Origin: a virus
Direction: 5' to 3' (one strand)
Length of the DNA stretch: 13,845 bases
Virus genome (UHGV): UHGV-0175259
A program made the position numbers and the translations under genes. The first letter of the stretch is position 1; the number at the start of each line of letters is the position of its first letter. The notes beneath the pieces are model-generated. The model worked only from the letters and a program-made list of their open reading frames with translations, did no database searches and was not told where the DNA came from. Positions 11,620 through 13,785 of this stretch are shown here, piece after piece.

Positions 11620-11654
11620 AATATGAACCTCTCATAAATTAAGAGGTTCATATT
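11620..11654. terminator. Bidirectional terminator candidate between the convergent tailspike and acyltransferase genes
   Basis: Perfect 13-bp inverted repeat AATATGAACCTCT (11620..11632) / AGAGGTTCATATT (11642..11654) with a 9-nt loop; T-rich flank on the minus strand. Confidence 0.5.
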
Positions 11655-11676
11655 ACCAATAAAAATTATAACTCAA

Positions 11677-13587
11677 TTAATCTTCAAGTGGGTTTTTATT
11701 ATCTTGCAAGTATTTTTTCGCAATCCACATCATTCCATTGATGCTTAAATGACCATTGTCATGGTACATAGGGTATCCCATTGCGAAAGGTGTGTATTTT
11801 TTATTCTTAAGCATTAGGTAGTACGGGTCAACAAGATAAACATTATTAAAATGTGATGCTGCGCTTTCTATTTTTTTACGCGACTCATCCAATCCTGGTG
11901 CTAGATCAAAATTAGTTTCAGCATCACATGTTCCTCTCTCGTAGCAGGCAGCGGGATTTATTACCCACTCAGGCATTTGATCCATAATAATAACTTTCTT
12001 TGCGTGAGATGAGTAAAATGATAGGAACTCGGTGAAGTTAGCGTTTTTATATGACATATTCTTATCATCCCTTGCCCATCTATTAGCAATGATAATTGTA
12101 TCATATTTACCAGATTTTATTTTTTCATTAATTATTCTTCTGAAGTTTATGCAGACATCAGGGTTTTCTCCATCTTTCTTAACTTCTCTTGTTGGGTAAC
12201 AAGATGAAGTGCTCAGTTGATTTATTTTTATTCCAGCCCTGCGACCCATTTCATCTACAAATGGACCGTAATGCCCTGCATTGGAATCACCAATATATAG
12301 AGCTTCTTTATTTGATGTTTTATCACCTATATAACATTTGGCCATAGACTCATTAAAAGTTATGCCATTTTTTCCTTCTGCGCTAACATGACACCATCCT
12401 TCGTCCATTCCAGCATATTTCACATCTAAATTATGATTTTCTCCTACACTTCTGAATTTGAAGCCATTTGTTATAGTTGACATAAACAACACAATAAAAG
12501 CAGTTGCAATAAAAAATGTGTTAATAAAAATAAAAGAACGAACAAATGATATTTTTGATTTTCTTATTGGATTCTCAATGAATTTTAAACTTAAATATGA
12601 TAAAATAAATGTCAGGAGTACTATTGTCAATTTGACTTCAAGTGAGTCTATCACTCCCATATATGTTGAATATGCAATCAACGGCCAGTGCCAAAGATAT
12701 ATTGAGAATGATAGCAATCCAATTGTGGATATTATTTTTGAACCATAGATTTTTGATATCACATTGCCATTAAAACCGTTCCCCCCTAAAATTACTAACA
12801 TTGCACCAAATGATGGTATCGCAGAATTTAACCCAGGAAACACTGATAATTTGTTCACTGTTACAGATGATGCCGCAATAAGAATAGTTCCTAATATTAC
12901 TACTATGTAAGAATTAAACTCCCTTATTTTTTTATAATCTCTATTCATTAATGCTAGGGCGGACCCTAGAAGCAAGCCTCCAGAGCGTGTGATTGGCATA
13001 TAATATGAGAACCCAGCGTAACGCCTTGCCATTATTTCAGAGAATATAAAGGCAAATACTGAAATTATTAATGTAATAACACCAATATGTTTTGTCTTAA
13101 TGTGCTTTAGTGCAAGTAAAATAATAATTGGCCATATAAAGTAATATTGCTCCTCTACGGCCAATGACCACATATGAAGTAGTGGCATCTCATCTGCAGA
13201 AGATGAAAAATAAGCTCCTGTCGCTTTCCAAAAATAAAAGTTAGCAGCGTAGATGGATGTGTACAAATAGCTACTAATAAGTGAAGAATAATCCTTTGGT
13301 AATAGGATGAACCATCCGGCTATAATTGTACAAGATGCAACTAAAAAAACATTTGGTACTATTCTCTTTATTCTTCTGTTAAAGAAGTCAGATAATGAGA
13401 AACTATTTCTGTCAATAGCTTTTATAACAATACCAGTGATAAGAAATCCAGAGATAACGAAGAAGACATCAACACCAATAAAGCCGCCACTAAAAGGTGA
13501 TAGCTTGAGGTGATAAGCAAAAACAAGAAGGACAGCAAGTGCTCGTAGGCCATCAATATCAGATCTATATCGTGTAGTCATGGTCAT
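11677..13587 (-). CDS. Membrane acyltransferase, acyltransferase-3 domain fused to a C-terminal SGNH-hydrolase domain (OafA/OafB-like O-antigen O-acetyltransferase type)
   Basis: N-terminus DIDGLRALAVLLVFAYHL plus many hydrophobic segments (AT3 domain); C-terminal ALYIGDSNAGHY (GDS motif) and HDNGHLS (catalytic His region) typical of SGNH. The track start 13599 is a TTG; I place the start at ATG 13587..13585 (no strong SD either way). Very AT-rich relative to the rest of the window. Confidence 0.85.
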   Translation of the reverse strand: MTMTTRYRSDIDGLRALAVLLVFAYHLKLSPFSGGFIGVDVFFVISGFLITGIVIKAIDRNSFSLSDFFNRRIKRIVPNVFLVASCTIIAGWFILLPKDYSSLISSYLYTSIYAANFYFWKATGAYFSSSADEMPLLHMWSLAVEEQYYFIWPIIILLALKHIKTKHIGVITLIISVFAFIFSEIMARRYAGFSYYMPITRSGGLLLGSALALMNRDYKKIREFNSYIVVILGTILIAASSVTVNKLSVFPGLNSAIPSFGAMLVILGGNGFNGNVISKIYGSKIISTIGLLSFSIYLWHWPLIAYSTYMGVIDSLEVKLTIVLLTFILSYLSLKFIENPIRKSKISFVRSFIFINTFFIATAFIVLFMSTITNGFKFRSVGENHNLDVKYAGMDEGWCHVSAEGKNGITFNESMAKCYIGDKTSNKEALYIGDSNAGHYGPFVDEMGRRAGIKINQLSTSSCYPTREVKKDGENPDVCINFRRIINEKIKSGKYDTIIIANRWARDDKNMSYKNANFTEFLSFYSSHAKKVIIMDQMPEWVINPAACYERGTCDAETNFDLAPGLDESRKKIESAASHFNNVYLVDPYYLMLKNKKYTPFAMGYPMYHDNGHLSINGMMWIAKKYLQDNKNPLED

Positions 13588-13785
13588 CAAACAATTCAAT
13601 GTAAAGTAGAGTAAACGACAATAATATCAGCTAAAGAGGCTCAAAACACTAGCATCGAATACTTGATTTAACGATTTGTTACTCATCATTCTGAAACATC
13701 ATCACTAAGATTACTTGGTTGCTTCTTAATTAACCGTTGCGTGAGTGAATATTTGTTTGCAATGCTAAAATGTAATATTGGACTG

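Follow-up and report, generated by a model that had tools for sequence, protein, structure and literature searches.

UHGV-0175259, listed as a virus genome, is a stretch of 13,845 nucleotides (the window) of Escherichia coli chromosome that carries the remnant of a P22-like prophage. The last gene of this remnant most likely encodes a phage-derived membrane enzyme, an O-acetyltransferase of OafA/OafB type with two domains, in which an acyltransferase-3 (AT3) part is fused to an SGNH domain. The best explanation of this gene, to which we give a probability of about 0.7, is that its product acts on the repeat unit of the O104/K9 polysaccharide, and that the cassette was retained because it benefits the host. 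O-antigen acetyltransferase cassettes of this sort are common and familiar in prophages, and this one was flagged in O104:H4 strains in 2012. Added here are the host and likely substrate, the restriction to one serogroup, signs that the gene is under purifying selection and has been retained repeatedly, observations that speak against simple masking of the receptor, and a variable upstream repeat. The gene belongs to the lineage behind the 2011 German O104:H4 outbreak, in which the sialyl-T-like O104 antigen is probably decorated by its product. Whether and how it controls sialic acid O-acetylation would bear on serology, on recognition by sialic-acid-binding host receptors and esterases, and on how phages, pyocins and glycoconjugates directed at O104 are designed. 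The enzymes that O-acetylate sialic acid in E. coli O-antigens are not well characterized (PMC9631793).

The gene lies in an open reading frame (ORF) at 11677..13599 on the minus strand, giving 640 amino acids (aa) from a TTG codon, and the original observation is confirmed. In E. coli MRE162, PGAP annotates the same gene as WP_087634135.1. A frame of 636 codons in DNA of 66% A+T, combined with strong profile scores, excludes a chance ORF. Pfam PF01757 (Acyl_transf_3) matches residues 14-335 with 84.8 bits (cut-off 31), and PF19040 (SGNH fused to AT3) matches residues 403-631 with 113.4 bits (cut-off 27). Both domains exceed their gathering scores in the AT3-then-SGNH order of OafA/OafB-type fused enzymes, and the PHROGs family phrog_6705, 'O-antigen acetylase', spans the full length (E=3.5e-147). 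The fusion noted in the preliminary description is upheld. So is its remark on composition: the G+C content of the gene is 0.341, against 0.461 in window 1-9600 and 0.412 in the receptor-binding part of the adjacent tailspike gene.

The residues essential for OafA were established by mutagenesis (Pearson et al., PMC7448272). They include R14 and H25 (R/K-X10-H, transmembrane helix 1), R69/R72 (RxxR), E325 after transmembrane helix 10, the GG-F/Y-xGV-D loop and the SGNH triad S412/D587/H590. A motif scan finds counterparts of all of them in the window protein, and their conservation was read from an alignment of 50 homologues of 28-68% identity. R15-X10-H26 is present with both residues invariant, as are F42FVISG47 (FFxISG motif) and R72-IK-R75 (RxxR). 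The loop motif of fused proteins, GG-F/Y-xGV-D/P/V, occurs as S33-G34GFIGVD40-V41, is likewise invariant and corresponds to OafA S32-V40. E338 (in IENPIR) is invariant and is paired with OafA E325 by position and pattern, not by direct alignment. The SGNH part has block I (G433-D434-S435) and block V (D610-x-x-H613). All the homologues have G433, D434, S435 and H613, and at least 90% of them have D610. Disrupted catalytic motifs, a possibility raised at the outset, were looked for in this alignment and against the OafB SGNH structure 6SE1, and the motifs are intact. A single-protein phmmer search of the PDB found no solved relative; a profile of the 50 homologues reaches 6SE1 (E=4.5e-5) with the GDS and DxxH blocks aligned. 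The AlphaFold2 (AF2) model (pLDDT 91.4, pTM 0.88) is helical up to residue 372 and continues as an alpha/beta domain. Its top Foldseek match is again 6SE1 (E=4e-7, target TM 0.64), followed by PatB, a peptidoglycan O-acetyltransferase. An OafB-like extended SGNH fold after a helical part is thus predicted; in OafA/OafB-type enzymes about 11 transmembrane helices precede this fold.

No further gene separates the acyltransferase from the inferred attR. It lies convergent to a P22-type tailspike gene, with a 70-nucleotide (nt) spacer between them. This is the slot in which P22-like phages carry modifier genes, as had been proposed, and the full-length P22-like prophages of strains NCTC9104 and A11 carry the same cassette. 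The tailspike head-binding domain comprises residues 1-113, and matches in the PDB are limited to this N-terminal domain; the remainder of the protein is a receptor-binding part specific for O104/K9. Between the convergent stop codons lies a perfect inverted repeat, likely to be a bidirectional terminator: RNAfold gives the spacer -16.3 kcal/mol on the plus strand and -24.0 kcal/mol on the minus strand. A scan for consensus terminators did not list this hairpin, which has no T-run. Strain 55989 and the O104:H4 outbreak strains carry a P22-like prophage to which the tailspike-acyltransferase stretch is 97% identical. The tailspike itself differs from the O104:H4 allele at 23 of 659 residues (96.5% protein identity), and the tailspike portion of the window is 88.8% identical at the nucleotide level to the tail fibre gene of CLB_P1, a virulent phage of 55989. 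Scholl et al. (2012, PMC3303846) synthesized the O104:H4 tailspike and fused it to an R-type pyocin, which killed all O104 strains and, apart from these, only an O9:K9 strain.

The same gene has been recorded in O104:H4 (EGR74046 / WP_000178979.1; 55989), at a distance of 2 nt and 1 aa (K624E) from the window copy. Scholl et al. proposed that this 'putative O-antigen acetylase' acetylates the O104 antigen, and remarked on its retention in a prophage remnant (PMC3303846). The genes are 99.9% identical, and the tailspike partner, the upstream region and an octanucleotide repeat tract, (AAACTATT)n, are shared. The settings differ. In O104:H4 the gene lies beside intS at argW and the tract has 5 copies, whereas the window copy lies at the sbcB-dacD end with a different integrase, has at least 7 copies, and belongs to a host that is O8:K9-like, not O104:H4. 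No later functional study of the O104:H4 acetylase was found in the searchable open literature, and a review of AT3 proteins (PMC9558356) makes no mention of O104.

The distribution of the gene points to its substrate. Among 5426 complete E. coli genomes, 24 carry it, always at full length and with at least 99.6% identity. O104 wzy is carried by 37 genomes; all 24 gene carriers are among them, and the gene occurs in 0 of the 5389 others. The Fisher probability of this co-occurrence is 5e-57, a value not corrected for phylogeny in a set with only about five independent lineages. The cassette occupies three chromosomal sites: sbcB-dacD (window, MRE162, NCTC9104), argW by intS (O104:H4, 55989, TOK-001) and ybhB (A11). 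Its neighbour is one of two tailspike alleles, whose amino acid identity is only 79%. Restriction to O104-wzy genomes, three sites and two tailspike alleles are correlative observations, most simply explained if the O104/K9 polysaccharide is modified by the enzyme. Host and substrate, given as unknown in the preliminary description, are in this way narrowed to E. coli with an O104/K9-type cluster.

The genome of MRE162, a classic strain for aerosol tests, fits this picture. The window is 99.94-99.96% identical to it over 1-6570 and 8516-13845, and a contig of GCA_015476745.1 is identical over window 2604-13845 but for one base. Between galF and gnd, MRE162 carries an O104-family cluster with neuD-like, neuB, neuA-like and neuC genes, a GT52 sialyltransferase, wzy and wzx. 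It also has an O8 wzm/wzt (ABC-transporter mannan) cluster next to his. The two clusters lie about 30-45 kb from the window stretch (L003 3413-12990 and 18204-30284), and their gene content gives MRE162 an O8:K9-like genotype. K9 is chemically the O104 polymer (PMC3303846).

It is highly improbable that a different envelope glycan (enterobacterial common antigen, peptidoglycan, colanic acid or the O8 mannan) is modified and that the link to O104 is a coincidence. AT3 and AT3-SGNH proteins do act on many glycans (PMC9558356), and the sole NCBIfam match of the window protein is SucT, far below threshold at 123 bits against a cut-off of 1275. These glycans are, however, universal in E. coli, yet the gene is confined to genomes with O104 wzy. 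An O8 cluster is absent from O104:H4, and the tailspike to which the gene is physically linked is O104-specific.

A mechanism for O104/K9 modification can be proposed by analogy with OafA and OafB. (i) Cytoplasmic acetyl-CoA, the inferred donor, would bind in the transmembrane pore of the AT3 part at R15/H26 and R72/R75. (ii) The acetyl group would be handed to the periplasmic face. (iii) The SGNH domain (S435/D610/H613) would then move it to a hydroxyl of the polysaccharide repeat unit, before or during surface assembly. (iv) The acceptor would most likely be the O104/K9 repeat unit Gal-Neu5Ac-Gal-GalNAc (galactose, Gal; N-acetylneuraminic acid, Neu5Ac; N-acetylgalactosamine, GalNAc), the polymer bound by the neighbouring tailspike. 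(v) The target hydroxyl may be O7/O9 of the sialic acid or a Gal/GalNAc position, the latter fitting the behaviour of OafA and OafB equally well. (vi) The gene probably arrived as a cassette via P22-like temperate phages and was kept as the prophage decayed.

O-acetyl groups of the O104 antigen are reportedly located on Neu5Ac only, according to ECODAB. O-acetylation of this antigen was reported by Gamian in 1992, as cited in PMC3303846. A review (PMC7685785) names a Neu5Ac,7Ac,9Ac derivative for a group of five sialic-acid O-antigens that includes O104. The biosynthetic cluster itself may account for such groups. In MRE162 it encodes an acetyltransferase of the NeuD/NnaD family (TIGR03570, 187 bits against a cut-off of 160.8), and the NeuA-like protein of the O104/K9 cluster bears a C-terminal GDSL esterase domain. 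Together these could explain sialic acid O-acetylation without the prophage gene. The prophage enzyme would then acetylate Gal or GalNAc of the repeat unit and leave Neu5Ac to the NeuD homologue, a division of labour that we regard as a real though minority possibility. It agrees with the presence of both homologues in the cluster and with the action of the AT3-SGNH relatives OafA and OafB on hexoses or deoxyhexoses (PMC7448272). It is countered by the reported placement of the O-acetyl groups on Neu5Ac only, by the reported dependence of polymer O-acetylation in E. coli K1 on the prophage enzyme NeuO and not on NeuD, and by Lag-1 of Legionella pneumophila, an AT3-type enzyme that acetylates O8 of legionaminic acid, so that AT3 proteins can use nonulosonic acids (PMC9558356); Lag-1 differs from the window enzyme in lacking an SGNH domain.

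A more specific and rather doubtful proposal, drawn from analogy, is that the enzyme is a polymer-level periplasmic sialate O-acetyltransferase which gives rise to the 7/9-O-acetylated Neu5Ac of O104/K9, with the level tuned by slippage of (AAACTATT)n. In K1, Steenbergen et al. (2006) reportedly found that NeuD and NeuA act on monomeric sialic acid, with NeuA deacetylating, and that O-acetylation of the polymer needs the prophage enzyme NeuO. To our knowledge, no bacterial AT3-SGNH enzyme has yet been shown to act on sialic acid. If the proposal is true, the enzyme would be a functional counterpart of animal CASD1. CASD1, an AT3-type membrane acyltransferase, O-acetylates sialic acid and is described as having a catalytic domain that is luminal, plus a multipass membrane domain (PMC13043746). 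It is eukaryotic, and its likeness to the window enzyme, for which sialic acid is a hypothetical acceptor, is one of description. The surface antigen of O104:H4 and K9 strains would in that case be in a state that is heritable yet variable, much as neuO provides for K1.

Several observations weigh against O104/K9 modification for host benefit, in addition to the cluster-encoded acetyltransferase and esterase. The co-occurrence with O104 rests on the small number of lineages given above. Thirteen O104-wzy genomes are without the gene, which is thus not needed to make the O104 antigen. The gene copies are nearly identical, with at most 7 differences in 1911 nt, which implies recent spread and makes their intactness weaker evidence of selection than it appears. 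Scholl et al. left the function of the acetylase open (PMC3303846).

Relatives outside E. coli extend the association with phages. Homologues 54-68% identical occur in Enterobacter, Buttiauxella, Cronobacter, Providencia, Morganella and Aeromonas. The expectation that these sit in nonulosonic-acid clusters was rejected: all six examined are prophage-borne, and they are thus uninformative on the acceptor sugar. Five of the six are convergent to a tailspike, tail-fibre or tail-fibre-assembly gene, and their prophages are of sipho- or myo-type, not P22-like. This AT3-SGNH clade accordingly has the appearance of a recurrent moron beside receptor-binding-protein genes across phage morphotypes. The best matches in isolated phages are about 33% identical acetylases of Salmonella P22-like phages (including BTP1 GtrC/OafB) and acetylases of Pseudomonas D3-type phages. 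Other P22-like prophages have, at this position, another AT3-SGNH gene or a hexapeptide acetyltransferase, or leave it empty.

OafB (family II GtrC; BTP1, Salmonella Paratyphi A) and OafA (Salmonella Typhimurium) are the nearest characterized models. They share the AT3-SGNH fusion and all essential residues with the window enzyme. OafB likewise comes from a P22-like prophage, and its SGNH domain is the best structural match. Identity to OafB is about 33% over 85% of the length. The acceptors of OafA and OafB are rhamnose or abequose in Salmonella O-antigens, whereas a sialic-acid-containing unit is proposed here, and OafB lies in a gtrAB-type operon whereas the window has no gtrAB.

The position of the gene also recalls Oac of Shigella phage Sf6. 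This gene occupies the same slot of a P22-like phage, following the tailspike gene and close to int/att, and causes serotype conversion by O-acetylation (PMC9558356). Oac consists of an AT3 domain only (about 333 aa), without SGNH. The O-antigen acetylases of Sf6, D3 and phiV10 act by receptor masking, and Oac blocks adsorption of its own phage. Superinfection exclusion, by which acetylation would mask the O104/K9 receptor and block adsorption as with Oac, was part of the preliminary description. As the main role of the enzyme we consider it unlikely. The gene does hold the classical slot next to a receptor-binding-protein gene, both in P22-like phages and in the sipho- and myo-type prophages of other genera, and phage O-antigen acetylases commonly mask receptors (PMC9558356). 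Yet the pyocin armed with the O104:H4 tailspike killed gene carriers, namely outbreak isolates, 55989, 2009EL-2050 and 2009EL-2071, and equally killed RM9387 and 94-3024 (=RM13368), in which O104 wzy is present and the gene absent (PMC3303846). Since carriers and non-carriers alike are killed, the modification neither blocks recognition by the cognate tailspike nor is required for it, a departure from the Oac model of Sf6. These killing assays were qualitative and used a pyocin, not a phage, which makes them indirect as evidence on resistance of lysogens to the converting phage, and partial or switched-off acetylation is still compatible with them. Exclusion is accordingly not borne out for the cognate receptor-binding protein; the companion claim, retention under selection, is supported.

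Retention is seen in at least five independently decayed prophages in which the acyltransferase is intact: the window lineage, MRE162, the outbreak clade, 2009EL-2050/FDAARGOS_348 and TOK-001. The outbreak clade has lost the regulatory and lysis regions through a deletion associated with IS1. The tailspike is 5'-truncated in 2009EL-2050/FDAARGOS_348, and in TOK-001 it is a split pseudogene with almost nothing else of the prophage left. Ten gene copies show 11 segregating sites, of which 8 are synonymous and 3 non-synonymous (ratio of non-synonymous to synonymous polymorphism, pN/pS, 0.10; binomial P=4e-4). These comparisons support retention of the gene under purifying selection while the prophage decayed. 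That it was kept whole amid such decay suggests that the modified surface antigen benefits the bacterium.

A functionless passenger, intact merely through very recent spread of the cassette, would also show just 11 segregating sites over all copies. One copy may even be broken. GCA_015476745.1 has a run of five T instead of six at window ~11797-11802 (residue ~596), which splits the gene into ORFs of 613 and 30 aa with loss of SGNH block V. This frameshift may be an assembly error in a homopolymer, or else a real inactivating slip. Against a passenger stand the skew of substitutions towards synonymous sites and the fivefold, separate deletion or breakage of neighbours around a whole acyltransferase; the lone frameshift lies in a homopolymer. 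We consider this explanation very unlikely.

The acyltransferase and the tailspike differ in their divergence across strains. Divergence of the tailspike gene across strains amounts to 118-476 nt (6-24%), against at most 0.4% for the acyltransferase. Comparison of the alleles thus portrays the acyltransferase and its upstream region as a conserved module of recent spread, attached to a receptor-binding gene that is diversifying. Divergence of the tailspike rises about 600 nt into the gene and falls again in the last ~180 nt.

The region upstream of the acyltransferase is expected to hold its promoter. A scan for sigma-70 consensus sites found none between the repeat and the ATG; an extended -10 candidate, TGnTATTAT, was spotted by eye only, about 35 nt before the ATG. 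Signals of gtr-type Dam/OxyR phase variation are missing, there being no GATC in the 258 nt upstream of the gene. The repeat (AAACTATT)n begins 198 nt upstream of the ATG, outside the ORF, and continues past the window end; the MRE162 tract is L001 18287-18394. Its copy number varies among close relatives from 3 to 13, as at a contingency locus. There are 3 copies in TOK-001, 4 in 55989, NCCP15648 and NCCP13905, 5 in eight Shiga toxin (Stx)-positive O104:H4 genomes, 9 in NCTC9104, 10 in GCA_015476745.1 and 12 in A11. Subcultures of MRE162 themselves differ, with 13 copies in UK and FRA and 5 in NOR. Numbers were counted directly, except in six O104:H4 genomes, where they were deduced from the 229-nt spacing between gene start and intS. 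The tract may be an expression-tuning simple-sequence repeat that acts by its effect upstream of the promoter.

The surroundings of the repeat suggest where the cassette came from. At argW the repeat abuts the stop codon of a complete intS. Relics of the intS 3' end follow it elsewhere, 48 nt at sbcB-dacD (L001 18395-18442) and 84 nt in A11, which indicates that the cassette was copied from an int-proximal context into phages with other integrases. The repeat is not a general feature of intS 3' ends: 2392 genomes match, and among the non-carriers listed the match begins just past the repeat. No comparable repeats were found upstream of homologues in other genera. The cassette unit comprises the 3' part of the tailspike gene, the terminator, the acyltransferase gene, the 198-nt leader and the octanucleotide repeat.

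A parallel exists in NeuO of CUS-3 (E. coli K1). Here too a P22-like prophage carries a tailspike directed at a sialic-acid polymer and a neighbouring gene that O-acetylates this polymer. CUS-3 shares the region of ant and the tailspike N-terminus with the window at 94% nucleotide identity. A simple-sequence repeat is associated with both genes, a parallel that is suggestive only. The heptanucleotide repeat of neuO reportedly lies inside the coding region, whereas the window repeat lies upstream. NeuO is a soluble hexapeptide-repeat enzyme, in contrast to the membrane AT3-SGNH protein of the window. NeuO is described as phase-variable (PMC3046976). Another prophage (L026) has a hexapeptide acetyltransferase gene at the equivalent position; a check for the AAGACTC repeats typical of neuO found none, and the gene is not called neuO.

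The remainder of the window documents the decay of the phage. The 5' end of sbcB takes up positions 1-165, and all that follows belongs to the remnant between sbcB and dacD (table 1). Intact genes are those for the integrase, the cI-like repressor, cro, cII, an O-like replication protein, ant, the tailspike and the acyltransferase. Genes for nin functions, lysis, packaging, head and ejection are absent from the element, and ssb is without its 5' end. Of the earlier picture, in which integrase, immunity region and modifier survived and all lytic genes were lost, the first half holds and the second is slightly too strong, since tailspike and ant are intact.

Table 1. Features of the window and their positions.
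Feature	Position	Strand	Basis or remark
Candidate attL core, CGTAATCGTGAAA	120..132		inside sbcB 5' end; shared 13-mer, local alignment of MRE162 ends
Tyrosine integrase, 392 aa, intact	347..1525	+	PF13356 + PF00589
Immunity region	4975..6324		Pfam; PGAP annotation of identical MRE162 stretch
cI-like LexA/S24 repressor	4975-5607	-	part of immunity region
cII	6043-6324	+	immunity region, alongside cro-like helix-turn-helix gene
dnaB-type helicase gene, 3'-truncated	7372..8580	+	deletion junction 8515/8516
ant antirepressor, intact	8604..9527	+	PF10547 + PF10548
P22-type tailspike, 659 aa	9627..11606	+	Pfam PF09008 (222 bits), P22 head-binding domain
Perfect inverted repeat, 13 bp, between convergent stop codons	11620..11654		sequence; RNAfold
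AT3-SGNH acyltransferase, 636 aa from ATG 13587 (PGAP start)	11677..13587	-	ORF list, Pfam, PHROG, AF2
Periplasmic SGNH domain (predicted), residues ~399-636	11680..12393	-	Pfam, motif scan, alignment, 6SE1 match
Membrane AT3 part, residues 1-372	12472..13587	-	motif scan, hydropathy, 50-sequence alignment, AF2
Alternative TTG start of acyltransferase	13599	-	gives 640 aa
Upstream/leader region, 198 nt, expected to hold promoter	13588..13785	-	100% identical in 11 of 11 copies compared
Octanucleotide tandem repeat (AAACTATT)n, perfect	13786..13845		7 copies, tract cut by window edge

The dnaB-type gene is cut at about codon 381; its match to the DnaB_C profile covers no more than positions 1-184 out of 255, and the tail of the ORF is out of context. 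The deletion runs to just upstream of ant, and homology to MRE162 restarts at window 8516. MRE162 has other deletions in the same element, one removing most of the O gene and one reaching from about dnaB codon 117 to a P63C gene. Window 6571-8515, compared with L001 10941-13017, keeps O and most of dnaB and has lost P63C, arc and mnt, and in MRE162 the reverse is the case. Mutually exclusive deletions at about 99.95% identity show that the two lineages decayed independently from a fuller ancestor. Both keep ant, tailspike and acyltransferase despite these differences. In NCTC9104 a full-length P22-like prophage with the same integrase type occupies the same site and ends in the same tailspike-acyltransferase pair; A11 has a full-length P22-like prophage with the cassette at its other site. 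From such full-length, cassette-bearing prophages (NCTC9104; A11 and 55989 elsewhere), the window element is recognized as the remnant of a phage of this kind.

Comparison of the element ends suggests that integration of the phage takes place within the start of sbcB, at a candidate att core. The putative attR partner of CGTAATCGTGAAA lies about 420 nt past the window end. Arm-type motifs, GTACCA(A/G)A, occur near int at 297, 308 and 331, and recur near attR.

Further observations concern individual genes. The ant gene is intact, but the deletion took its promoter region as well as the regulators arc and mnt. The truncated dnaB directly precedes it, so that transcription of ant together with the early-right operon is conceivable. 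Particle formation is no longer possible for this phage, and yet its tailspike gene is whole. Of two accessory genes in the early-left and immunity region, one encodes a secreted LprI-like protein of the lysozyme-inhibitor family (241 aa, 2131-2856, minus strand). The other, directly downstream of cI, is a gene for a phrog_2651 protein of 158 aa (4574-5050, minus strand).

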